From sequence record SRR16203515_1153: 44,669 bases of DNA, one strand, 5' to 3'. The notes beneath the pieces were generated by a model, which saw only the letters and a list, made by a program, of their open reading frames with translations, was not told the DNA's origin and did no database searches. The translations under genes were made by a program, and so were the position numbers. Position 1 is the first letter of the stretch; the number at the start of each line of letters is the position of its first letter. Positions 2,320 through 15,125 of this stretch are shown here, in pieces.

Positions 2320-4202
2320 TGCCTGACGGCTTTCGTCGACTCTTAACGGGCACGCTTCTTTCGGTATTTTTCTTGTCGTCACCGTGTATTGGTGAAGAGA
2401 AAATCCAGCAATTTTCCAGTTTGATCGAGATCCATACCGATGGCGGGCTCACTATTACTGAGAAAATAACTGTCCTGGCTGAAGGGGACAAAATCCGCCG
2501 GGGCATATATCGGGATTTCCCGACTCGATACAAGGACCGCTCGGGAAAAGCGAAAACAGTAGGGTTTCAATTTCTCGACGTTAAGCGGGACGGAAAGCGT
2601 GAGCCTTTTCGCCTCGAAAATATTAGCAACGGCGTTCGGGTGTACATCGGTCGAGGTGATCACTTCTTGCCGCATGGGCAGTATTCCTATGAACTGATCT
2701 ATCAAACGGACCGACAGTTGGGTTTCTTTGAGCGCCACGATGAGCTGTACTGGAATGTGACCGGTAATGATTGGGCCTTTACCATTGAGCAAGCTGACGC
2801 GGTCGTACAACTTCCCGCGGGTGTTAGTGCACATGACGCTGAATTAACGGCTTATACGGGGGCGAGGGGCGAAACCGGTCGAGACTACCGACTGGACGCT
2901 TTAGCTGATGGTCAGGTCCGATTTGAGATCACTCGTCCGCTTCCGCCGGGATCAGGGTTCACCATCGTGGCGGGGTGGCCAAAAGGGTTTGTAGTCGAGC
3001 CCACAACGCCTCAACGCCTGAGGTATTTCTTTCAAGATAACCTCGCCGTGGTGGTTGGATTCGCCGGTTTCTTTTTAGTCTTTTTTTATTTCATTTACGC
3101 CTGGAGCCGCGTTGGCCGGGATCCCGCGCGGGGCACTATCTTTCCTCGGTTTGAGCCGCCGAATGATTTATCCCCAGCCGCTGTGCGATACATCATGCGA
3201 ATGGGGTTCGATAACCGTGTTTTCTCTACCGCATTAATTAGCATGGCGGTGAAGGGCCGTATCCGTATCGAGGAATCTGAGAGCAAAAAGACCATTATTC
3301 ACAAAAACGGGGTTCAGGATGAAACGCCGTTATCTTTCGGAGAGCAAGTAATCTTTAAGAAGCTATTAGCGAATCAGGAAAGCTTTGAGTTAGATAAGTC
3401 TCACCATAAAAAAATTCGCAGCACCCGGGATGCATTCAAAATGCGTCTCGAGGGTGAGTACCATCGTCATTTTTTCTTCAACAACCGTCGATGGCTGATT
3501 CCGGGTATCGTAATATCAATCTTGACGATTATTGCAGTCGTCATGACCAATTCCGAACCGCAAACAATCCTCGGGATGGGTATTCCGGTATTAGTGATGT
3601 TCGTCTTCCTGTTTGCCGCTCGCTCGATCTGGCAGCAGGGTCGTTGGTTTCACGCGATTATCTTCGGCGTAATTGCGATAGTGAGTGGACTCTCCAACAT
3701 TGCCTTCGCACTTTTGAGTAGTAACTTGATCGTCGTTTTAATTTTAGTTCTGCTGGTCGGGGTCAATTTCCTGTTCTACGCATTAATGAAGGCTCCTACC
3801 CGGGCGGGTCAAAAGATTATTGACGAGATAGAAGGTTTCAAAAAATATCTTGTTACCGCGGAAAAAAATCGACTCAACACGTTAGGCTCGATCGATCAGC
3901 GACTGCTTTTATTCGAGAAATACCTGCCCTACGCGCTCGCATTGGATGTCGACCAGGAGTGGTCAGAAAAATTCAGTGACGCCCTGGATGAAGCCACCAC
4001 GCGTTCGGATAATCATTATCGACCGAGCTGGTATCACGGCCGATCGTGGAACACTCGAGATCCAGTGGGTTTCGCAAAATCACTCAATCGTTCGCTGTCT
4101 CGCACGATCGTCTCCGCGGGGACTGCACCGGGTTCGTCATCAGGCTTTAGTGGCGGGTCATCCGGTGGCGGTGGCGGTGGCGGGGGTGGCGGGGGATGGT
4201 GA
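2319..4202 (+). CDS. DUF2207 family membrane protein
   Basis: RGIYRDFP, DELYWNVTGNDW, multiple TM helices, FEKYLPYALAL and a Gly-rich GGSSGGGGGGGGGGGW end. Overlaps the lemA stop (TAATG). Confidence 0.9.
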   Translation: MPDGFRRLLTGTLLSVFFLSSPCIGEEKIQQFSSLIEIHTDGGLTITEKITVLAEGDKIRRGIYRDFPTRYKDRSGKAKTVGFQFLDVKRDGKREPFRLENISNGVRVYIGRGDHFLPHGQYSYELIYQTDRQLGFFERHDELYWNVTGNDWAFTIEQADAVVQLPAGVSAHDAELTAYTGARGETGRDYRLDALADGQVRFEITRPLPPGSGFTIVAGWPKGFVVEPTTPQRLRYFFQDNLAVVVGFAGFFLVFFYFIYAWSRVGRDPARGTIFPRFEPPNDLSPAAVRYIMRMGFDNRVFSTALISMAVKGRIRIEESESKKTIIHKNGVQDETPLSFGEQVIFKKLLANQESFELDKSHHKKIRSTRDAFKMRLEGEYHRHFFFNNRRWLIPGIVISILTIIAVVMTNSEPQTILGMGIPVLVMFVFLFAARSIWQQGRWFHAIIFGVIAIVSGLSNIAFALLSSNLIVVLILVLLVGVNFLFYALMKAPTRAGQKIIDEIEGFKKYLVTAEKNRLNTLGSIDQRLLLFEKYLPYALALDVDQEWSEKFSDALDEATTRSDNHYRPSWYHGRSWNTRDPVGFAKSLNRSLSRTIVSAGTAPGSSSGFSGGSSGGGGGGGGGGGW

Positions 4203-4609
4203 TCCTCAAGAAGTGAAGATCGGCGACATCAGTCGATCACATAAGAAGCAGAGTCAACGCCCGCCTTAAACTTGCGGGCAGCAGACGAGTACGATTTGAT
4301 CTCTTTGCTATCAGGTTTACGTGTTTAATACTGAACAAAACGCGGCGTGTCCGAGTTCGTTCGTTCGTAGGCCTAAAAGACTAATCGGTGTTTTTAAGCG
4401 CTTTTAGAACAGCCGCGTTCTCACGAATACGTTTTTGATCGTTCGCCGCATTCGATCGATTGACCGGACGCTCCTTGTTCATTACCTTTCCCTTTTTTAC
4501 TCGCTTTCCCATAAGTCACCTGTGTGCTGACAATAAAAACCAGATGTGGAGTCTAACGAGTTGAGTGCTGAAGGCAAGTCAATCGATTAAATCCGGGCTT
4601 AATACGCGC

Positions 4610-5752
4610 TTAAAGCGTCCGCCGTAGGGCATCGATAACCGTATCAAGCTGTTTTTCTTCGATCGTGAGAGGGGGCAGCAGTCGAATAACCGTCGGGCCT
4701 GCTGGCAGCGCAATAATTCCAGTGTCCAGTAGCGTCTGCAGGAATGGCGTTGCTTTTTGTTTGAGCTCGATACCGATCATTAAACCAATTTGTCTGAGCT
4801 CCCTAACGGAATCCGGCAGTTTTTGGGTAAAACCCTCTTTAAAATAATCCCCGAGGTGAGATGCGCGATCTGCGAGCTTGTGCTGAACCATAAAATCAAT
4901 AGCGGCAGAACCTGCTGCGCATGCCAGAGGATTACCCCCAAATGTTGACCCGTGGACTCCCGGTCGAACGCTCACAGTCTCCGCGCACAGGACCGCGCCC
5001 ATTGGAACGCCGCCAGCAATGCCTTTTGCGAGGCACAATAAATCTGGCTCAACATCGTAGTGTTCGCAGGCGAAAAACCCACCGGTTCGACAAAAACCAG
5101 TTTGAACTTCATCGATTATGAGCAGGGCGCCTCGGTCGGTACAGATTCGACGAGCAGCGTCCAGGAAATCCCGGCTCGCGGGGCGTACGCCGCCCTCACC
5201 TTGAACAATTTCCAGCATCACTGCGGCTGTTGTTTCATCGACGGCCGCATCGAGTTTCTCGATGTTATTGAGCGGAATGAAAGATGCACCGGGAATTAAC
5301 GGTTCAAACTCGTCTCGATACTTGAACGTCGCACTCAAGGCGCCAAGGGTTCTACCATGAAATCCTCGCATCGCCGTAATCAGTCCGGACCGACCGGTGG
5401 TTGCACGCGCAAATTTAATCGCGGCCTCGACACTCTCGGTTCCGGAGTTACAAAGAAAGACGCGTTCCAGAGACTTGGGCGAAAGACGCACAAGCCTTTG
5501 CATAAGTTCCCCTCGTCGGTCGTTATGGAAAATACCGGGGCAGGTGAGCAGTGTTTCGGCTTGATCGGTGAGCGCTTTAATTACGGCAGGATTGCTGTGT
5601 CCGATATTGGCGACGCCAACACCCGCTGCGCAATCTATATAGGTTTTGCCATCGTCCGAGAAAAGCGATGCGCCTTCTCCACGAATGATATTAATGCCTC
5701 GCCGCGGATAGACTTCAAGCGCATAGCGGGATTCTAAAGACGGTTCGGTCAC
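4610..5752 (-). CDS. lysJ: [LysW]-aminoadipate semialdehyde transaminase (class III PLP aminotransferase, LysJ/ArgD family)
   Basis: NSGTESVEAAIK, FHGRT, DEVQTG, LAKGIAGG and HGSTFGGNPL. Last gene of the lysW operon; its GTG start overlaps the lysZ stop. Confidence 0.85.
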   Translation of the reverse strand: MTEPSLESRYALEVYPRRGINIIRGEGASLFSDDGKTYIDCAAGVGVANIGHSNPAVIKALTDQAETLLTCPGIFHNDRRGELMQRLVRLSPKSLERVFLCNSGTESVEAAIKFARATTGRSGLITAMRGFHGRTLGALSATFKYRDEFEPLIPGASFIPLNNIEKLDAAVDETTAAVMLEIVQGEGGVRPASRDFLDAARRICTDRGALLIIDEVQTGFCRTGGFFACEHYDVEPDLLCLAKGIAGGVPMGAVLCAETVSVRPGVHGSTFGGNPLACAAGSAAIDFMVQHKLADRASHLGDYFKEGFTQKLPDSVRELRQIGLMIGIELKQKATPFLQTLLDTGIIALPAGPTVIRLLPPLTIEEKQLDTVIDALRRTL

Positions 5753-6540
5753 TTGATTGTGGTCCCTTTTCCAGCTAACGCATCGAAGATAGGGTTTTCT
5801 GTTCGGCCATCGGCAATCACGACCTCTGCAGCGCCATCTTTAAGCAAACGGGTGAGGGCTAATAGCTTGCGTTTCATTCGGCCTTCAGCAGCCATCTCTC
5901 GACTGGCAAGATCGGAAACGGAAAGTGTGGGGCATAACGAGTTTTCATCGTCTTTATTGTCGAGGAAGCCCGGCGCTTCGATTAACTGGATTACTTTTTG
6001 TGCCCCTAGCGCTTTTTGCAAAACTGCGACAATATCGTCGTTTTCAGAGTTAATCGCGTAGCCTTGCTCATCAACAATTGGAATGCTGAGCACAGGCCGA
6101 TACCCTTGGCCGAGAAGCAACGTAAGCAGGTCTGCGTTCACCGATTCCGGCTTACCCGAAAAATCACGCTTGATGAGTGTTTTGCCGCCTTCTCTAACCT
6201 TGATGCCTTTATTGCGTTTGCCTTGTACCAAACGAGCATCAAGTCCGGTGAGGCCGATTGCGTTGATGCTGTTCTGCTGGCACAGCTCGACAAACCGTTT
6301 ATTCCGCAGTCCGCTGTATGCCATCATAATTAGATCAATCGCTTCTGCATCGGAATAAACGCTGCTGTAGCCAGAGACCGAAGTTAATTCGATCTTCTGA
6401 TGACCGGTTAATGCTGCGAGGCGGTCGCGCGCGGCATTCGCCCCGAGAACGACGATAAAAGGCTCCTTGATTGCGGCCAGATCAGCGACGACACCGTCGA
6501 GATTTATTCCGCTTCCGCCTCCAACTTTAATGATGTACAT
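5749..6540 (-). CDS. lysZ: [LysW]-aminoadipate/[LysW]-glutamate kinase
   Basis: Amino-acid kinase fold: IIKVGG, SVSGYSSVYSD, GLTGLD, basic loop GKRNKGIKVREGGK, GRMKRKL and GKGT. lysW operon context. Confidence 0.88.
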   Translation of the reverse strand: MYIIKVGGGSGINLDGVVADLAAIKEPFIVVLGANAARDRLAALTGHQKIELTSVSGYSSVYSDAEAIDLIMMAYSGLRNKRFVELCQQNSINAIGLTGLDARLVQGKRNKGIKVREGGKTLIKRDFSGKPESVNADLLTLLLGQGYRPVLSIPIVDEQGYAINSENDDIVAVLQKALGAQKVIQLIEAPGFLDNKDDENSLCPTLSVSDLASREMAAEGRMKRKLLALTRLLKDGAAEVVIADGRTENPIFDALAGKGTTIK

Positions 6541-6549
6541 AGCTGTTGG

Positions 6550-7188
6550 TCATAACTCGGTCACCGTTCGGTTTTCGATAGTTTGCCATTTTGCGTCTGG
6601 CAAGGGATAGGGTTCGGAACATACAATTTCAAATCGGTCGGTGGATGCTCGATGCATTTGAAAATAACCTTGATTTTCATTGTACTGAGTGGACAAAAGT
6701 GATTGCTGGGGTGTTGCGATAATCAGGTTCATTGCCCGTATATAACGGGTTCGTTTTTCAATCACGTCGACTGTTTTTTGGAGCCCGGGAATAGCGCCAA
6801 GATGCGAAAACCGGCTGGAATAGTTAAAAATCTTTTCAGCCCCGATGCGGCCCGATTCCCGAATTCGGACCCCCGTCAACTCCCCATTAAAAATAAACAC
6901 TCGATTTCCGTTGGTGAACGGCATGTTATTTTCAACCCGGATGCCTTCGTCCCGAAACGCACTGCGGGCATGAGCGAGAAAAAGGCTCGTATCGTTGAAC
7001 CGGTCTAGAACGTCCTGCCAGATGGGTGTAATACTGTGATGAAAACGCCATTGATTGTCGTCAAGCCAGGCGCAGCCCCAACCGTGTCCCTGATACTCGC
7101 TACTGTTCTCGCAGATAGCGGCAAATGCTTCAAGGTGCTGTGTCACCTGAACCGGTTTGGGCGCACGAAGCCATAATAGTCGACACAT
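6550..7188 (-). CDS. Class II glutamine amidotransferase-like Ntn hydrolase (YafJ/EgtC/Dug3-like), stand-alone
   Basis: N-terminal MCRLL (Cys2 nucleophile), GHGWG, LAHARSA, ENNMPF, FIFNG and CSEP. Separated by 9 bp from both neighbours. Confidence 0.85.
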   Translation of the reverse strand: MCRLLWLRAPKPVQVTQHLEAFAAICENSSEYQGHGWGCAWLDDNQWRFHHSITPIWQDVLDRFNDTSLFLAHARSAFRDEGIRVENNMPFTNGNRVFIFNGELTGVRIRESGRIGAEKIFNYSSRFSHLGAIPGLQKTVDVIEKRTRYIRAMNLIIATPQQSLLSTQYNENQGYFQMHRASTDRFEIVCSEPYPLPDAKWQTIENRTVTEL

Positions 7189-7197
7189 TTTGAATGG

Positions 7198-8223
7198 CTA
7201 GATAGGGTGAAGACCGGTAAAGGTGAGCCCGGTTGACTCGTTCAATCCATGCATGAGATTAAAACATTGGACGGCTTGGCCTGCCGCGCCTTTCATCAAG
7301 TTATCAATGGCGCTGATCACAACGAGACGGTTGGTGCCAGAATCAATCTCGAACCCGATATCACAAAAATTAGTACCGCTCAAAAGCTTCGGCTCCGGAA
7401 AACGATGAATCCCGCTTCGCTCTTTAACAATGCGAATAAAGGGCTCATTCGCATAGTCCTCCCGATAAATCCCCCAGATCTCTTTTTCCAGGTGGGATTC
7501 ATTCAAAAAGATATGGCAGGTTGCCAAAATACCGCGGACCATCTCGATAGATGTTGCCGAAAAGTACACCGGGAAATCGCCAAGGGATTGGCTGATCTCG
7601 GCAACATGACGATGGCGAGTCGGGCGATAAGAACGAACGGCTCCGCTTCTTTCGGGGTGATGACTACCCTCTGTTGCGGCGTTCCCGGCTTCGCTCGAGC
7701 CGGCCTTCACATCGATGACGACAGAGGAGATCAAGTTACGGTTCGCAAGCGGCGCGAGCGCTAATGTGCTGGCAGTCGCGTTACAGCCCGCGCACGCCAC
7801 ATGAGTCGCATCCTGAATAGCCGCGCGATTAATCTCCGGCACGCCATAAACAAATCGATCGAGAAGACCCGGATTAGGGTGCGGCTGCCCGTACCACTTG
7901 GCATAGGTATCAGGGTCCGATAGCCGAAAATCTGCACTTAAATCAATAATCCTCGATGCCAGCGCAGAGAAGTCGTCAAATCGTTCTGCTGTTTGTCCGT
8001 GGGGTAAGCATAAAAACAAAACATCACACGGCTGGAGCTCCGTTAGATTGCAAAATTTTAGCGAGCTGGCGCCACGAAGATTAGGGTGGGCCTTATGAAC
8101 CGCTTTACCTGCAAATCGCTCCGAGGTGACCTGTTTAACCTCGCACGACTCATGGAAGAGCAGCAGGCGCAAAAGTTCACCGCCTGTATATCCTGAACCG
8201 CCAACAATTGAGACATTTATCAC
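7198..8223 (-). CDS. lysY: [LysW]-aminoadipate-6-phosphate reductase (LysY/ArgC family)
   Basis: [27 protein letters not shown], catalytic AGCNATA, LysY-type [19 protein letters not shown] and [11 protein letters not shown]. Confidence 0.88.
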
Positions 8224-9053
8224 GGTCTGGACCCCAAAACATAGTCCACCACCTGCGCCGGAATATTGACTCCGGTGGTTTCGATGCTATTTCGAAACTC
8301 CATGGTGTAATTCACTTCGTTCACGCACAGTCCGTCATTTGTTTCAAAAAGATCCACTGCAAGAACGCCACCCCCAACCGCAGCAGCAGCTGCGAGGGAG
8401 ATTTCAGCGATATGGGCATCAACCTCACACCCGCTCGCGACAGCGCCTCGCGCTGTATTTGTGATCCAGTGCTCGGAGCTTCGATAAATGGCAGCGATAC
8501 ATTGATTTCCCACAACAAAACTTCGAATATCACGGCCCTTTTTTTCCACAAATTTTTGAATATAAAAGATGGAGTGGTGATAACTGCCTAAAACTGATTT
8601 ATGTTCCAGGATCGCCTCAGCTGATTCGCGGTCATTCACTTTCGAGAGTAATCGACCCCACGAACCAACCGCGGGTTTAAGCACGACTGGATAGCCAAGT
8701 TCTTCGATAGCAGCGAGGGCTGATTCCTCAGTAAACGCGACACGAATCGGTGGTTGTTTCACGCCCGCTTTTTTTAGCGCTACCGAGGTGAGTATCTTGT
8801 CGCCACAAATTGAGGCAACTTTAGCGGAGTTCACGCAGTGGACGCCTGCCGTCTCCAGCAGTTGAAGTCCATACAATGATCGGGAATGATTAATACTTCG
8901 CTCTAAAACAACATCAACGTTAGGGATGGGTTCAAGATCAAACACCAGTTTACGGTCGTCAATCATCTGAAGGTTAATCCCGCGAGCTTGGAATTCCTCA
9001 ATCAGAAGTTTTTCTTCTTTTCGGATTAAAGAATGGAGCAATCCGACCTTCAC
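8220..9053 (-). CDS. lysX: Alpha-aminoadipate--LysW ligase (RimK/LysX ATP-grasp)
   Basis: [36 protein letters not shown] and [12 protein letters not shown]. Start reassigned to GTG 9053, which overlaps the lysW TGA (GTGA). Confidence 0.92.
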
Positions 9054-9214
9054 TCGCCCCAATCCTCCTCAGTTTCTGGCGCTTCTGTCACCGTAGCCGG
9101 ATCAAGACCTGTGACCTCAAGTTCCGATCCACAATCAGTACATTCCAGTAGCTCGCCGATTACTGTACCTGCAGCAAATGAGATTTCAGCACCACAAACT
9201 GGGCATTCAGTCAT
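9050..9214 (-). CDS. lysW: LysW amino-group carrier protein (54 aa; missing from the ORF track)
   Basis: Manual translation gives [54 protein letters not shown]: two CxxC pairs, acidic, with the hallmark C-terminal EDWGE. TAAGGA RBS upstream. Confidence 0.97.
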
Positions 9215-9289
9215 ATTCTTGTTTCCTTAATCATGTTGGAAAGGGCGGGTTAGCATGCCCTCGGGAATTGATTCCCTTAAAATTAGAAT

Positions 9290-9511
9290 TGTAATTTAAC
9301 TTACATCTCGAAACTAAAAAATAATTTTCAACTAAATCCATATATTTGATCGTGAAAAATAAACCGGGGGTCTCAGTTTGATGCTAAAGGCCTCGCGGCT
9401 TAAAAATATATTGCGCCTACTTTCAATAGGTTGATGAAACTTGACTACTCAGAAGAGATATTCCCGCGCTACCGCCTATTTTTTCTTGGATTTAGTTGTA
9501 ATTAACTTATA
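9290..9511. promoter_or_regulatory. AT-rich divergent control region with candidate TetR operators
   Basis: Near-palindrome TGTAATTTAACTTACA (9290-9305) and related TGTAATTAACTTATA (9497-9511) between lysW and the first tetR. Confidence 0.5.
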
Positions 9512-9549
9512 CTGAAACGCTAATATCCGATAAATTATTTAAGGCATTT

Positions 9550-10176
9550 ATGGCTTCAAAAAAAGGATCGGCACGAGCTCCGACCCGCAGACCTGGTATC
9601 GACCGATACGACAAGGTTTTGGGAGCGGCTGAGGAAATAATTTTAGAGAACGAGTCACTAGACGGCCTAACTCTCCAGGCGATCGCTGCGAAAGCAAAGG
9701 TACCAAGAGTCTCACTATATTATTTTTTCCCGTCGATCGATGCCGTGATTGAGGCACTTTACCAGCGTATTCTTACCCGACTGATAAGTGAACTTTCTCA
9801 GTCATTCACGAAACCCGATAAAGATTGGAAAAAGGTCATGACCCGACTCATGACCGAAGTCCGTAATCACTATCGCAAAAACACGTTAACTACCGTTTTG
9901 GCACTCACACCTCCCTCACCCAAAATGATCAACGAAGCCCATATTGTTTATGGAGAGGCTGTTGCAAGCATGTTAGTGGCTATATCGAGCGTACCCGCGT
10001 CCAAGAATTTGACAATGGGATGCGAAATAGCGGCCGAGATTGGTACAACGATTTTTCGAAAATCTTATCTAGAAAACGGAACAATTACTGATTCTTATTT
10101 GGCAGAAGCGCTCAACGCGGTTATCGCCTATCTTGACACGGTTATCAGCCCTAAGAAAGTCGCTAAAGTAAAATAA
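9550..10176 (+). CDS. TetR/AcrR family transcriptional regulator
   Basis: N-terminal HTH LTLQAIAAKAKVPRVSLYYFFPS; about 200 aa, helical. Confidence 0.9.
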   Translation: MASKKGSARAPTRRPGIDRYDKVLGAAEEIILENESLDGLTLQAIAAKAKVPRVSLYYFFPSIDAVIEALYQRILTRLISELSQSFTKPDKDWKKVMTRLMTEVRNHYRKNTLTTVLALTPPSPKMINEAHIVYGEAVASMLVAISSVPASKNLTMGCEIAAEIGTTIFRKSYLENGTITDSYLAEALNAVIAYLDTVISPKKVAKVK

Positions 10177-10260: not shown

Positions 10261-10866
10261 ATGATGCAAGAAGAGAGAGTTATTCGAGCCGGGGTTAAGA
10301 GGCCCGGAATTGACAGATACAACGCTATCATTCGGGCGGCAGAAGCAATCATCACTGAAGAGCGCTCAATCGCGGAGTTATCCATTCAATCTGTTGCCCG
10401 CAGAGCTCGTATTCCCAGAGTCTCCGTTTACTATTTCTTTCCCTCGGTCAACTCACTAGTAGAAACACTTTATAAGCGAGGTGTGGAGCGGATGGCGACC
10501 GAGTTCTTAGGTGAGCCTCAATCTGAAACCACACAACTTTGGCCTAATTTTGTGGAGTCCCTGATGGATCAGACCCGGTCTCATTACGAAAAAAATCCGG
10601 TTACGATGATTCTGGCCTTTTCTCCCGCATCACTGACACTCCTTAATCAAGCTCATCAGCACTATGGAAAAGAGCTAGCACATACTTTGGCCCATTTCAC
10701 AGGTGATCAGGTTTCCGGGCGGTTGATTCGCTCCTGTGAAATTGCATCCGAGATCGCGGACTGCGTCTGGCGAAAATCGTTTATGGAACATCAGATTATT
10801 TTGCCTTCTTTTCATCAACAGGCCAAAAGTGCCGTTCTGGCTTATCTTAAGTCTGTTATCGGGTAA
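10261..10866 (+). CDS. TetR/AcrR family transcriptional regulator, paralog of the upstream gene
   Basis: HTH LSIQSVARRARIPRVSVYYFFPS. Shares RPGIDRY, CEIAxEI and RKS motifs with 9550..10176. Confidence 0.9.
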   Translation: MMQEERVIRAGVKRPGIDRYNAIIRAAEAIITEERSIAELSIQSVARRARIPRVSVYYFFPSVNSLVETLYKRGVERMATEFLGEPQSETTQLWPNFVESLMDQTRSHYEKNPVTMILAFSPASLTLLNQAHQHYGKELAHTLAHFTGDQVSGRLIRSCEIASEIADCVWRKSFMEHQIILPSFHQQAKSAVLAYLKSVIG

Positions 10867-10914
10867 GTCTTTTTGACACGATTTAGCGGTTGAAAAAAAT
10901 CAACTCGAAGGCCT

Positions 10915-10948
10915 TACAGGATGGGTTCGTGGCAGAACCCATCCTGTA
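10915..10948. terminator. Perfect 14-bp hairpin between convergent genes
   Basis: TACAGGATGGGTTC-gtggca-GAACCCATCCTGTA. There is no strong U tract, so it could instead be a stabilising or REP-like palindrome. Confidence 0.55.
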
Positions 10949-10958
10949 GCCGGTCAAT

Positions 10959-12431
10959 TTATCGGGGGAAATTAACTAACGAAAATTTGGTGTCGGGGTT
11001 AGGGTATTCCTTCAAACTTTCAACATATTGCCCCACGATCTTGAGGTACGGGGCGATCACCCAGGCTTCGGTCCCGATCTGGTTCATTTGCTCTCTCGGA
11101 TCACGAGCGATGTTAAAAATTGCCGGATATCCCATTCCTTCCATGCGATAACCATAGATCCCACCTGCTGACGGGTTGCCAGCAGACGTGATCATTTGCT
11201 TGGGATACATTCGCCAATTTCGCCAGCGAACGGCGGCGACTTCACCATCGATAAATGCAATGTAGTCTTCTCTCGCAGATTTATCAGTTTCTCCTTTGAA
11301 AAAAGGGAGCTGATTGCGGCCATCAATCGGCCGGTCATCGGGGAGACTATCGGATAATAGGGCGGCAAAAGTAGGAAGAAAGTCGTGAATGGCGACCATT
11401 TCATTACTTTTCCGGACCGGGATCTCTCCGGGCCACCGAATCATCCCCGGCACCCGCAATGATCCCTCTGTTGCATCGCCGATGTCGCCATTGAAAGGCC
11501 CAGGAGAGCTCCCCAGATAATCATGGTTAATTCCGTTACGATTCACCGGGCCGTTGTCAGAGAGGTAGACCACTATTGTGTTGTCCCGAATGCCAGCGTC
11601 ATCGATTGCGGATAGCACTTGACCTACACGATGATCATGCTCCATCAACATGTCTCCATAGCGCCCGGCGCTCGACAAGCCACGAAACTCTTCGGACGCC
11701 CCTTCGGGATAATGAACGTGGGACCAGCCAACATATAAAAAGAAAGGATTAGCCTGGTTGGCGTGGTCTTTTATGTAATTCCTGGCCGCATCAGCAATAT
11801 CGCCCTCTACTTTTCGACGATACTCTAGATCGTATTTCCGAACCTTTTGCAGGTTACCGCTGCCGTTGGATTCCCAAATATAAGGTCGACTTTTGCCAAT
11901 CACCCCCTCATCGCGGATGCCGCTTCGGCGCATTGATTCAGGGTAAAGCGTGCCGTCTGTTGTTTCGAGAATCCCGACCTTATACGTATCAAACCCCTGA
12001 TTAATGGGCAGACTTTGTTCTTCCTGACCGAGATGCCATTTGCCGGTCATCCCGGTTTGGTAGCCGTGCCTTTTAAAGAGTTCAGCTATCGTAAATTCTT
12101 CATCGGCCAGTGTCAGCGGTGTGCCAGCGACGATGATGCTGTTTAATCCCGAACGGACACTATACCGTCCGGTCATTAACCCCGCCCGCGAAGGTGTACA
12201 CCCGGGTTCAACAAAAAATTGTGTCAGCATCAATCCTTCAGACGCGAGTCCATCGATGTTCGGGGTAGGCATCCCCCGAACATCACCACCGCCATAGGCC
12301 CCGAGGTCGCCATAACCAAGGTTGTCAGACAACATTAGCACCACGTTTGGGCGATCAGACGCCCATCCGACCGATAGATAAAAAGTTAAAAGAAGTAGAC
12401 CAAAGATCTGCTTAACACAAGACGACGTCAT
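10959..12431 (-). CDS. Arylsulfatase (Cys-type formylglycine sulfatase), exported
   Basis: RPNVVLMLSDNLGYGD, CTPSRAGLMTGR, GKWHLG and SDNG. ATG 12431 has a GGAGG RBS and a signal peptide. Confidence 0.93.
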   Translation of the reverse strand: MTSSCVKQIFGLLLLTFYLSVGWASDRPNVVLMLSDNLGYGDLGAYGGGDVRGMPTPNIDGLASEGLMLTQFFVEPGCTPSRAGLMTGRYSVRSGLNSIIVAGTPLTLADEEFTIAELFKRHGYQTGMTGKWHLGQEEQSLPINQGFDTYKVGILETTDGTLYPESMRRSGIRDEGVIGKSRPYIWESNGSGNLQKVRKYDLEYRRKVEGDIADAARNYIKDHANQANPFFLYVGWSHVHYPEGASEEFRGLSSAGRYGDMLMEHDHRVGQVLSAIDDAGIRDNTIVVYLSDNGPVNRNGINHDYLGSSPGPFNGDIGDATEGSLRVPGMIRWPGEIPVRKSNEMVAIHDFLPTFAALLSDSLPDDRPIDGRNQLPFFKGETDKSAREDYIAFIDGEVAAVRWRNWRMYPKQMITSAGNPSAGGIYGYRMEGMGYPAIFNIARDPREQMNQIGTEAWVIAPYLKIVGQYVESLKEYPNPDTKFSLVNFPR

Positions 12432-12577
12432 GATTTCCTCCAAAATGTGAGCCTGAAGTTTTGGCAAGTTTAAAAGTTGACAGATGTTCAATAATAACGA
12501 AGATTGTTTTCAAGCGCTACAAGTTCGCCCAGACAATCCGACTGAGGGGAAAAGAACATTGAATCCGCGATACCACG

Positions 12578-12590
12578 TATAATCCGCGCG
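12578..12590 (+). promoter_or_regulatory. Candidate -10 box plus GC-rich discriminator for tRNA-Cys
   Basis: TATAAT followed by CCGCGCG about 50 bp before the tRNA. No well-spaced -35 seen. Confidence 0.4.
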
Positions 12591-12635
12591 AAGTTATTTT
12601 TCTACGTGTTATTTGACTAAACCGAAAGCTTCAGT

Positions 12636-12709
12636 GGCTGGGTGGCAGAGTGGTTATGCAGCGGCCTGCAAAGCCGTGGACGCCGGTTCGATTCCGACCC
12701 CAGCCTCCA
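12636..12709 (+). tRNA. tRNA-Cys(GCA)
   Basis: GGCTGGG/CCCAGCC acceptor stem, anticodon arm GCGGC-CTGCAAA-GCCGT, GGTTCGATTCC T arm, U discriminator and encoded CCA; 74 nt. Confidence 0.97.
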
Positions 12710-12749: not shown

Positions 12750-15125
12750 TTGAGTGGACTTATCTCAATTAAACCCCTGACCAATACAGTCTCCACCCGG
12801 CGTCGTCGAAGCTTTGGGCGACGCCTATCGAAACGTGTTCAGATCCAAAGCTGTATAAAGACAGGAATACGGAGGAGTGTTGGACTCTCTCTAGCCCTTT
12901 TTTTAACAACGAATTTCTTTGCCCAGGCCGAATCGGAGTTTATGGGGTCGAAAAGTTGTCAAGGGTGCCACGAACAAGCCTTTGAGAATTGGCGAAATTC
13001 TCATCATGATCTAGCAATGCAGCCGGCATCTGAGGATACAGTGCTTGGCGATTTTAATGGCGTGGAGTTTGACTACCACGGATCGATAACGCGGTTCTCG
13101 AAAGACGATTCCGGATTTTGGGTGACCACTCAAGGCTCGGATGGAATACTCGAAAAATTTCCGGTGGAATATGTTTTTGGCGTCTACCCGCTACAACAGT
13201 ACCTCATTCCCCTCGAAGGCGGCCGGCTTCAGGCACTTACAATTGCGTGGGATGCGCGGCCTCAAACTGAAGGAGGGCAACGCTGGTATCACCTTTATCC
13301 CGATGAATTCATTAGTCATTCCGACCCGCTTCATTGGACCGGTCCGTATCATAACTGGAACGCCCGATGTGCCGAATGCCACAGTACCAATGTTCGCAAG
13401 AACTATAACCTCGAGACCGATAGTTATGACACGAGTTATAGCGAGATAGACGTTGGTTGCGAAGCATGCCATAGCCCAGGTCGCGCCCACATCGAAGCTG
13501 TCGAGCAGGGTAGAGTGGGTGAAGTCGAGCACGGTGGATTTGAAGTCAGCCTGAAAGGAAATATGTTTTGGGAGAGGTCCCCCGGTGCCAGTGTTGCAAG
13601 CAGTTCTAAGAAGGCCAGTCCAATGCAGATCGAGAACTGTGGACGGTGCCATAGCCGCCGGAGAACCTTAGGCGACTATCATTACGGTCATTCACTACTC
13701 GATACACATTCACTGGCGATGCTCTCCCCGCCACTTTATCACCCGGACGGACAGATTCTCGACGAAGTATATGTGTACGGCTCTTTCATCCAAAGCAAGA
13801 TGTATGATGCTGGTGTTGTTTGCACTAATTGTCATGAGCCGCATAGCAACCAATTGAGAGCGGAAGGCAATGGCTTGTGCGGCCAATGTCACGATGCGGA
13901 TCGGTTTGATACGCCAGATCATCATCGGCATTTGAGTCCAAGTGAGGGTGCTCAATGCGTTAACTGCCATATGCCTGAGCAAGTTTATATGGGGGTTGAT
14001 AAGCGTCGGGATCACAGCATGCGTATTCCCAGGCCCGACATCAGCATCCAAATTGGCAGCCCCAACGCGTGCATACAGTGTCATACCGGCCAATCCAATG
14101 AATGGGCGGTTAACGCGCTGTCGCAATGGGGTGTCGACAACACGGATACTGAAGCGCATATCGGAGTTATCTTTGACAATGCACGGAACGGTGACCCTAC
14201 GGCGCTTTCAAAGATTCACGATTTAGCTCTCGACCCTAACAATAACGCAATCTGGAGAGGTTCAGCGGCAGAAATGCTGGGTCAGCACAGGACCGAAGAA
14301 GCAGCGCCGGTTGCGAAAGAACTGTTAAATTCTTCAAACCCGCTTCTAAGAGTCAGTGCCGTGAGATTGGTTGAAAATCTCCCTCTCGTTCAGACATTTC
14401 GAATTCTTCGACCCCATTTAAATGAAACAAACGATTCAGTCATCATGGAGATCGCTCGGGTCCTGTCGGAAGTCCCACTGGCGCAACTCCCTCCTTCAGA
14501 CGCATCCGCACTTACGAGCATTTTCAAGCGTTACTTAAATATCCAGTCGGATCATTTAGATCTACCTTCGGTTCAGGTTCAGTTGGGAAATTTTTATTCC
14601 AAACGAGGCTATCCCGAGAGAGCAGAATCAGCGTATCGCGCAGCGATCAGAATCAATCCACAAGTGACAGGTGCCTACATCAATCTTGCCGATCTAAAAC
14701 GTTCTGAAGGTGATGATGTGGCGGCTGGTAAGATCTTACTTGATGCCGTTAGGCGTTTTCCGACCGACGCCGATATTCTCCACGCTCTGGGGTTATGGCA
14801 AATAAGAAGAAAGAACTACGATGCCGCGCTTGAGTTTTTGAAATCTGCGTCTGCCTATGCGTCCGATAACATTCAGTATCGCTATATCTATGCAGTCGCG
14901 CTTCATGACCTAGGCCAAGCTGATCGATCAATAAAAGAGCTAGAAGCGGCACTCAATCTTTCAGCTTACTCATCTAACATCCTTCTTGCGCTGGTCACTT
15001 ATTCACTTGAGTTGGACCGGTACCAACAGGCTAAGAAATATTCAGAGCGGCTGGTTTCATTGGATCCCCTAAATAATAGTTATCTCCGGCTTTATCAGGA
15101 TGTAAGCGCTATAAGTGACAACTAG
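12750..15125 (+). CDS. Multiheme (8 CxxCH) cytochrome c with C-terminal HEAT/TPR repeats; start uncertain
   Basis: CQGCH, CAECH, CEACH, CGRCH, CTNCH, CGQCH, CVNCH and CIQCH; signal-like segment ending AQA; TPR-like helices (AESAYRAAIRINP, AYINLADL, YRYIYAVAL). Confidence 0.88.
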   Translation: MSGLISIKPLTNTVSTRRRRSFGRRLSKRVQIQSCIKTGIRRSVGLSLALFLTTNFFAQAESEFMGSKSCQGCHEQAFENWRNSHHDLAMQPASEDTVLGDFNGVEFDYHGSITRFSKDDSGFWVTTQGSDGILEKFPVEYVFGVYPLQQYLIPLEGGRLQALTIAWDARPQTEGGQRWYHLYPDEFISHSDPLHWTGPYHNWNARCAECHSTNVRKNYNLETDSYDTSYSEIDVGCEACHSPGRAHIEAVEQGRVGEVEHGGFEVSLKGNMFWERSPGASVASSSKKASPMQIENCGRCHSRRRTLGDYHYGHSLLDTHSLAMLSPPLYHPDGQILDEVYVYGSFIQSKMYDAGVVCTNCHEPHSNQLRAEGNGLCGQCHDADRFDTPDHHRHLSPSEGAQCVNCHMPEQVYMGVDKRRDHSMRIPRPDISIQIGSPNACIQCHTGQSNEWAVNALSQWGVDNTDTEAHIGVIFDNARNGDPTALSKIHDLALDPNNNAIWRGSAAEMLGQHRTEEAAPVAKELLNSSNPLLRVSAVRLVENLPLVQTFRILRPHLNETNDSVIMEIARVLSEVPLAQLPPSDASALTSIFKRYLNIQSDHLDLPSVQVQLGNFYSKRGYPERAESAYRAAIRINPQVTGAYINLADLKRSEGDDVAAGKILLDAVRRFPTDADILHALGLWQIRRKNYDAALEFLKSASAYASDNIQYRYIYAVALHDLGQADRSIKELEAALNLSAYSSNILLALVTYSLELDRYQQAKKYSERLVSLDPLNNSYLRLYQDVSAISDN

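Follow-up and report, generated by a model that had tools for sequence, protein, structure and literature searches.

To our knowledge, standard accounts assign synthesis on the carrier protein LysW to Thermus-Deinococcus, to archaea and to some Chloroflexi, and have it end in every case with LysK, which is a metal-dependent M20-type deacylase. The pathway of Thermus thermophilus (LysW, LysX, LysZ, LysY, LysJ and LysK) combines a zinc-ribbon carrier with an EDWGE tail, a LysX ligase with the motif F-I-T-NS, a [LysW]-aminoadipate kinase, a reductase and an aminotransferase, and each of these has a counterpart of the same kind or family in the locus described here. The locus occupies positions 4610–9214 of a 44,669-nucleotide stretch of DNA from sequence record SRR16203515_1153 (the window, by which we mean the whole stretch) and is one six-gene operon, lysW-lysX-lysY-ntn-lysZ-lysJ (Table 1). 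lysK is absent from the window, and the sixth gene, ntn, encodes a cysteine N-terminal nucleophile (Ntn) hydrolase. We hold with middling confidence that this is a LysW operon in which the Ntn enzyme would release the product and which would serve its host as a resident, accessory route.

Five of the six genes, lysW, lysX, lysY, lysZ and lysJ, had been listed in a first-pass annotation of this DNA, and all five are intact minus-strand open reading frames (ORFs). That list was incomplete: the interval holds six tightly packed minus-strand ORFs, and one of these ORFs had been overlooked, as had the fact that lysK is missing. Overlaps amount to 13 nt between lysW and lysX and 4 nt each for lysX/lysY and lysZ/lysJ, and the remaining neighbors are 9 nt apart. 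The carrier matches PF21344 and scores 65.2 bits with TIGR01206 (cut-off 53.2). It is a zinc ribbon (Cys4/Cys7/Cys25/Cys28) with the acidic C-terminal tail EDWGE, and the four cysteines and E50-D51-W52-G53 are invariant among 27 aligned homologues. LysX reaches 327 bits with TIGR02144 (cut-off 275.6), its best solved relative being T. thermophilus LysX (3vpd, E 9e-87), and LysZ passes the [LysW]-aminoadipate kinase model NF010659 (235.7 bits, cut-off 223) while staying below bifunctional models (94.9 vs. 194). The one curated match of LysY is to the argC model TIGR01850 (396 bits, cut-off 233.6), and LysJ matches PF00202 (371.7 bits) and the argD subfamily TIGR00707 (426.4, cut-off 410). The forecast that lysY and lysJ would receive argC- and argD-like names thus holds for NCBIfam; that automated annotation would miss lysW is doubtful, as TIGR01206 passes. 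Position in the operon supports putative roles for LysZ, LysY and LysJ on LysW-bound intermediates. The surrounding chromosome had been called gammaproteobacterial, and this agrees with the tatD-like, holB, mltG, fabF, fabG, fabH, plsX, rluC, rne and rlmD genes found in the window; among the matches listed, the nearest named records are Arenicellales.

The cassette recurs well beyond the window. A search of a one-genome-per-species collection, with an alignment of 18 Ntn sequences as the query, matched at least 600 stretches, at least 567 of which encode a relative of the sixth gene; locus counts in this study refer to the best 80 of these at least 567 stretches. lysY lies directly upstream of ntn in 77 of the 80 (the other three end at contig ends), lysZ follows ntn in 69, the full order W-X-Y-Ntn-Z-J is kept in 52, and in 51 the six genes together span no more than 6 kb. 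Any further gene family is common to 9 of the 80 loci at most, so that the cassette is self-contained. Going by record titles, its carriers belong to Arenicellales, ‘Acidiferrobacteraceae’, Woeseiaceae and other Gammaproteobacteria and, beyond that class, to Gemmatimonadota, Vicinamibacterales, Calditrichota and Bacteroidota. Within the class of the nearest genome (G001), the operon is as uncommon as had been supposed, with lysW in 5 of 400 scored genomes; all five carry the six genes in the same order. Two close relatives have records without a metagenome-assembled genome label and may be available in culture. Two other loci (L037, from genome G403, and L050) have lysY-ntn and no lysW or lysX in about 7 kb upstream despite room for them; their carrier and ligase may be encoded elsewhere.

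The sixth protein begins Met-Cys and scores 22.1 bits with PF13230 (cut-off 23) and 40.7 with the EgtC model TIGR03442 (cut-off 218.65). Its family yielded 3029 matches in a library of 5.8 billion proteins and 316 representative clusters, at E 0.001, in a second library. The ESM Atlas offers only generic names for it, and 102 of 150 listed representatives share the Met-Cys start. Across 74 diverse family members, five residues never vary (C2, R3, W57, R75 and N101), and C2, R3, R75, N101, G102, E103 and K119 are kept in all 47 cassette copies. An AlphaFold model of the protein (predicted local distance difference test, pLDDT, 97.5) found EgtC structures as its top Foldseek matches (4zfl, 4zfk and 4zfj; E 3e-12, TMq 0.82, 16–18% identity), followed by free-standing proteins akin to class II glutaminases and by glutaminase domains from GlmS and PurF; EgtC, 3mdn, 1te5 and these domains all came at probability 1.00. 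Searching the sequences of the PDB with a profile likewise returned 3mdn (2.7e-10) and EgtC (1e-6). EgtC hydrolyses a gamma-glutamyl amide, removing the gamma-glutamyl group. By PurF numbering, R75 would bind the glutamyl carboxylate and Asn101-Gly102 would form the oxyanion hole. The protein shares the EgtC fold and is not an EgtC: TIGR03442 is far under its cut-off, and the neighbors are lys genes in 77 of the 80 loci. It has no synthase domain and no conserved partner beyond the cassette. One 477-aa database protein (P0167) joins an N-terminal Ntn part (1–126) to an amino-acid-kinase domain (215–401) and may be a genuine fusion of Ntn with LysZ or two genes called as one.

Whole-genome counts cover 19 cassette genomes that are complete or nearly so (G001 and 18 more) and 14 control genomes. 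The LysK model TIGR01902 exceeded its cut-off in none of the 19 and in 4 of the 14 controls, and none of the 80 loci has an M20 gene near the cassette. When the chains of Ntn and LysW were folded as a pair without supplied alignments, the predicted complex scored 0.81 and the best control 0.02, a score that is the model's own confidence and not a measurement and to that extent weakens the case. On a benchmark, 0.81 was attained by 51 of 78 solved complexes and by 2 of 108 mismatched pairs. Three runs agreed in at least 95% of contacts, with a partner pLDDT of 88. The predicted interface joins LysW 45–54, with the EDWGE tail, to Ntn 1–2, 75–78 and 100–110; the tail of the carrier would thus enter the Ntn active site at the conserved catalytic positions, and the prediction supports binding of the two proteins but falls short of showing it.

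The carrier itself provides a further indication of what Ntn may do. Among 62 LysW ORFs of cassette loci, 36 end in EDWGE and 26 in EDWGQ; these counts cover Ntn-cassette loci only, which tempers their weight in favor of Ntn. The Glu/Gln end changed at least three times on a cassette tree (quick maximum likelihood under LG+G4, 47 rows of five concatenated proteins, rooted at the midpoint without an outgroup), and ntn is present in every locus, Glu- or Gln-ended carrier alike. A Gln-ended carrier could not be ligated at the gamma position, so that a gamma-amidase would have to deamidate it before loading. Deamidation is glutaminase chemistry, and it fits an enzyme whose target is the gamma-amide at the C-terminal residue of the carrier. 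Taken jointly with the operon and its accessory role, replacement of LysK by the Ntn enzyme is a proposal that we see as evenly poised between right and wrong. A broader version is possible, and we put it forward tentatively: Ntn would be a dedicated LysW gamma-amidase with two jobs, unmasking Gln-capped carriers and freeing the product, and the cassette would be a module beside the diaminopimelate (DAP) and N-acetyl routes. Such a self-contained module, widespread in marine and sediment bacteria, would differ from the de novo lysine pathway known from textbooks: starting from a dicarboxylic amino acid that is scavenged or comes from catabolism, most likely alpha-aminoadipate, it would make a diamino acid independently of the feedback-regulated routes.

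In the proposed scheme, the operon would assemble a diamino acid on LysW, a carrier of 54 residues, at its C-terminal glutamate. LysX would spend ATP to couple the substrate, through its alpha-amino group, to the gamma-carboxylate of Glu54, LysZ would phosphorylate the distal carboxylate, LysY would reduce it to the semialdehyde, and transamination by LysJ would give LysW-gamma-lysine. Cys2 of Ntn would then attack the gamma-glutamyl amide, the product would leave, and water would free LysW for the next round.

As regards the substrate, the available part of PMC12998189 assigns the LysX motif F-I-T-NS to the aminoadipate-specific Thermus enzyme, I-Y-V-GF to ArgX and Y-I-T-NA to bifunctional enzymes. 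In an ungapped HMMER alignment to 3vpd, the window LysX has F182, I192, T203, N258 and S259 (Thermus positions). The same mapping gives Y-I-T-NA for the control TK0278 (5k2m), as published, which bears the procedure out, and F-I-T-NS is found in 47 of 47 cassette LysX sequences. Because of this motif and of the aminoadipate-kinase equivalog matched by LysZ, alpha-aminoadipate is the favored substrate and lysine the favored product, although neither assignment is secure.

A check for host lysine and arginine genes in relatives of the window had an unexpected outcome, as lysA, argB, argC and argJ were all found. Of the 19 cassette genomes, 18 have lysA above the TIGR01048 cut-off (controls 11/14) and 15 have argJ above that of TIGR00120 (controls 10/14), and canonical argB and argC exist separately from lysZ and lysY in all five genomes examined for them. 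Homocitrate synthase TIGR02146, in contrast, is over its cut-off in none of the 19 (controls 3/14), with 8 of the 19 lacking any match at E 1e-30, and the nifV-type model TIGR02660 is likewise at 0/19, the controls also being at 0/14. The homocitrate synthase models thus reveal no supply of aminoadipate; homoaconitase and homoisocitrate dehydrogenase were not tested separately, and 2-aminoadipate transaminase NF049976 is uninformative, being at 0/19 and at 0/14 in the controls. Cassette hosts have the DAP and N-acetyl arginine routes and no recognizable de novo aminoadipate synthesis. With lysA and arginine genes present and no homocitrate synthase, the cassette would be an accessory route and not the main lysine pathway; our best guess at such a role is aminoadipate salvage.

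Two further observations concern these host genes. A cimA-like and leuB-like pair in G001 (L091) was considered as homocitrate synthase plus homoisocitrate dehydrogenase and dropped: its two genes score best with CimA (454 bits, under 950) and with leuB (366.6, cut-off 353.2), and a paralogue of this type is missing from 8 of the 19 cassette genomes at E 1e-30. Of the 19, only the complete genome G404 (L066) has lysA under the cut-off, with 148.9 bits at best, and its argJ is also under; there the cassette might be the sole lysine route.

Several observations weigh against a lysine operon with Ntn as its release enzyme. The presence of lysA and the absence of homocitrate synthase leave both the source of aminoadipate and the need for the cassette unexplained. 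The aminoadipate call is also insecure because specificity can relax: in the available part of PMC12998189, single changes in Thermus LysX are enough, F182I letting glutamate load, and the Thermus enzymes LysZ and LysY also work on LysW-Glu intermediates, with activities of about 60% and 15–20%. LysJ is under the cut-off of the LysJ equivalog NF042418 (456 vs. 700), and no LysY-specific model backs lysY. Release could be the work of other enzymes, as every one of the five genomes searched has M20 paralogues that match TIGR01902 weakly (E <= 0.001). Ten loci have W-X-Y-Ntn and room downstream, yet no lysZ or lysJ. Finally, lysY of G001, the nearest genome, carries a 1-base insertion that splits it into two frames, which, if real, suggests that the cassette is dispensable.

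The ten loci without lysZ and lysJ (L045, L048, L050, L051, L052, L056, L061, L064, L069 and L072) come mostly from large (4–6 Mb) gammaproteobacterial genomes and show lysW-lysX, a gap of 0.1–1.5 kb and lysY-ntn. Aminotransferase matches with lysJ-like scores occur elsewhere in these genomes, and a Pfam scan of the gap ORFs of L052 named nothing useful. The insertion in G001 lies at L001:2590–2880 (about 7950–8230 of the window) and not in a homopolymer, and lysY is intact in the window and in L012. The cimA-like gene of G001 is split as well (L091:7836–9402) and is one 528-aa ORF in genome G402; both splits may be assembly errors or real decay.

Four other explanations deserve consideration. 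The main rival is synthesis of ornithine from glutamate in the manner of ArgW/ArgX systems, with Ntn again releasing the product, which would give the host a second supply independent of the arginine-regulated N-acetyl route. Glutamate is always available, homocitrate synthase is absent from all 19 cassette genomes, and the available part of PMC12998189 reports both the glutamate-loading F182I LysX and the acceptance of LysW-Glu intermediates by LysZ and LysY of Thermus. We nevertheless consider ornithine synthesis unlikely, given that all 47 LysX sequences carry F-I-T-NS and neither I-Y-V-GF nor Y-I-T-NA, that LysZ passes the aminoadipate-kinase equivalog and is far below the bifunctional models (94.9 vs. 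194), and that hosts with argB and argC (5/5) and argJ (15/19) already make ornithine. The role of Ntn might instead be confined to the deamidation of Gln-ended LysW, the product being released by an unlinked M20 deacylase such as an ArgE or DapE paralogue. What makes this improbable is that the window LysW ends in Glu, as do 36 of the 62, and yet ntn is intact with all catalytic residues here and present in every locus; moreover, the cassette has no linked M20 gene in any of 80 loci, and no M20 match passes the LysK cut-off in the 19 cassette genomes. The 26 Gln-ended carriers, the fit of class II glutaminase chemistry to deamidation and the weak M20 matches to TIGR01902 (E <= 0.001) in all five genomes speak for it. 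It is decidedly unlikely, though marginally less so, that the cassette makes the precursor of a non-proteinogenic product, as amino-group carrier protein (AmCP) clusters do, or that Ntn is an amidotransferase or transamidase rather than a hydrolase. The five core enzymes are closest to Thermus lysine enzymes, Ntn lacks a synthase domain and a conserved partner, and no tailoring genes (transketolase, oxidoreductase, ligase or exporter) are conserved, the most frequent extra family reaching 9 of 80 loci. This has to be set against host lysine and arginine routes that are already complete, a Ntn family with only generic names in the ESM Atlas, and the part of PMC11726168 available to us, in which AmCP machinery serves DADH-type products and an AmCP cluster of unknown product is described in the gammaproteobacterium Serratia.

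The fourth alternative concerns history rather than chemistry. The first-pass annotation took the operon for a horizontal acquisition at a tRNA hotspot of a gammaproteobacterial chromosome, and we regard a recently gained island of this kind as very improbable. A tRNA-Cys does lie 3.4 kb from the cassette, behind two TetR genes and a sulfatase, and a tRNA-Leu 8.6 kb away; lysW is rare in the class (5/400), the cassette occurs in several phyla at 50–60% identity, and only L011–L014 of the 80 loci share flanks with the window (L011 and L012 on both sides, L013 and L014 on one side each), so that flanks differ beyond the closest relatives. Against recent insertion, a Pfam scan of the flanking ORFs found no integrase or other mobile-element family (flanking direct repeats were not searched), and GC content does not shift, the cassette bins having 0.49–0.52 within a window range of 0.43–0.55. 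The closest named genomes carry the same flanks, and G001 is 95% identical to the window over 4.9 kb. On the cassette tree the window adjoins L012 in a starred clade of 19 rows (18 Pseudomonadota and the window) that are mostly labeled Arenicellales, and phylum labels are clustered, with 4 changes against a shuffled mean of 6.9; a second Arenicellales-labeled group lies across the midpoint. Old transfers between phyla are likely, while these data do not support recent acquisition at a tRNA. We are about half persuaded, as part of the joint explanation, that the operon is a long-standing resident of the Arenicellales lineage and not a recent island. The contiguity of the locus had also been queried. 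Independent metagenome contigs bridge 3778–5503 (from the DUF2207 gene into lysJ) and 5711–8826, which makes a chimeric assembly unlikely.

Table 1. Genes of the LysW-Ntn operon and the spacer upstream of it (window coordinates).
Feature	Positions	Strand	Product or description; models
lysW	9050–9214	minus	54-aa amino-group carrier protein; TIGR01206, PF21344
lysX	8220–9062	minus	ATP-grasp ligase; TIGR02144, LysX pre-ATP-grasp domain
lysY	7198–8223	minus	ArgC/LysY family, semialdehyde-forming reductase; TIGR01850, PF01118, PF22698
ntn (sixth gene)	6550–7188	minus	212-aa Cys-Ntn amidohydrolase, class II glutaminase / EgtC-like fold
lysZ	5749–6540	minus	[LysW]-aminoadipate kinase family; NF010659, PF00696
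lysJ	4610–5752	minus	class III aminotransferase; PF00202, TIGR00707
spacer	9215–9549	none	AT-rich, 335 nt, between lysW and divergent TetR gene

From its position, the spacer upstream of lysW is presumed to be the promoter region of the operon; the bin that contains it (9001–10000) has a GC content of 0.432. An Rfam scan of the window returned only two tRNAs at gathering scores and no family upstream of lysW, the lysine riboswitch included (best match E 0.66), so that a riboswitch cannot name the product of the cassette. The scans for promoters and terminators did no better than on shuffled sequence, with 2 consensus promoter-like sites (shuffled mean 5.9) and 10 terminator-like sites (shuffled 6.4). 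Flanking ORFs encode LemA, DUF2207, two TetR proteins, a sulfatase and a multihaem/TPR protein. The TetR genes (9550–10176 and 10261–10866) are tandem paralogues, about 40% identical and divergent from lysW; the pair is kept beside the cassette only in the closest relatives L011–L013 and may be a lineage-specific regulator of the operon. Directly after the tRNA-Cys, 12750–15125 encodes a 791-aa protein with multihaem cytochrome c motifs and HEAT and TPR repeats, which is conserved in L011 and L012.

In public sequencing runs, 13 DNA runs from seven marine or seawater metagenome studies hold 0.63–0.71 of the sampled words, and two metatranscriptome libraries of one study hold 0.52 and 0.40 and yield contigs over most of the cassette; runs X16–X19 hold small shares. 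The RNA-library contigs are compatible with transcription in the sea and are no proof of it. The RNA-library contigs give little or no cover over 10281–12362, an observation not used as evidence. Summed contig depth jumps 5- to 20-fold at 4035–4381 and 12363–12700 in all four runs. These sites are the Gly-run end of the DUF2207 gene with the spacer that follows it, and the tRNA-Cys, and the jumps are probably contigs of other organisms piling up on low-complexity or conserved sequence.

It had been left open whether the cluster is widespread and already documented in this lineage. Widespread it is, as the at least 567 matching stretches indicate; as for documentation, our search, which did not extend to supplements or to most subscription journals, found no paper that ties LysW to a class II amidotransferase or to a protein of the Ntn or EgtC-like kind. 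In the available part of the GapMind 2026 preprint, LysW comes up for TK0276 and nowhere else. The ‘lysW’ of PMC5584792, in the part at hand, is an NhaC-type transporter and irrelevant here. This study adds the Arenicellales case, genome counts for four genes (lysA, argJ, lysK and that of homocitrate synthase), a predicted complex of Ntn with LysW and evidence against recent transfer. The LysW carrier chemistry, with a different and unrelated proposed release enzyme, is found in hundreds of species-level genomes from abundant lineages of marine and sediment bacteria. If Ntn does release the product, this would be a clear-cut instance of one enzyme replaced by another that is not its orthologue, it would give a function to a sizeable unnamed family (3029 matches, 316 clusters), and it would explain why carriers are encoded with a terminal glutamine. 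That hosts keep lysA and arginine genes and have no homocitrate synthase bears on metabolic reconstruction and the prediction of auxotrophy in uncultured marine bacteria.

Among known systems, the AmCP clusters for vazabitide A, ficellomycin, azinomycin as well as s56-p1 resemble the cassette in having a LysW-like carrier and homologues of LysX, LysZ and LysY (PMC11726168, available part). According to the same portion of that paper, they add sugar-type aminotransferases, a flavin mononucleotide oxidoreductase, a ligase and a major facilitator superfamily exporter, whereas the cassette has no conserved extras, and the one known gammaproteobacterial AmCP case, the secondary-metabolite ser cluster of Serratia sp. 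ATCC 39006, has a different gene set. The ArgW/ArgX and bifunctional systems of Sulfolobales, Thermococcus and haloarchaea share the carrier logic and the enzyme families and differ in LysK-type release and in their LysX motifs, which are I-Y-V-GF or Y-I-T-NA (PMC12998189, available part). Compared with the Thermus pathway, the window cassette lacks LysK and has a Cys-Ntn gene between lysY and lysZ, and cassette genomes differ in having homocitrate synthase in 0/19 and lysA in 18/19 and in that 26 of 62 carriers are Gln-ended. EgtC (4zfj, 4zfk and 4zfl), the Ntn amidohydrolase of the ergothioneine pathway, which according to the PDB titles binds glutamine and a gamma-glutamyl substrate, has the fold of Ntn and a Cys after Met; Ntn is 16–18% identical to it, has lys and not egt neighbors, and would act on the C-terminal residue of a protein. 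The comparison with LysK, the [LysW]-lysine/ornithine hydrolase (TIGR01902, dapE-lys-deAc), is closest in chemistry, since the reaction proposed for Ntn is likewise hydrolysis of a gamma-glutamyl-lysine isopeptide with regeneration of LysW. Ntn is not homologous to LysK and belongs to the metal-free cysteine Ntn hydrolases, and if our reading is right, it would be a non-orthologous replacement of LysK.

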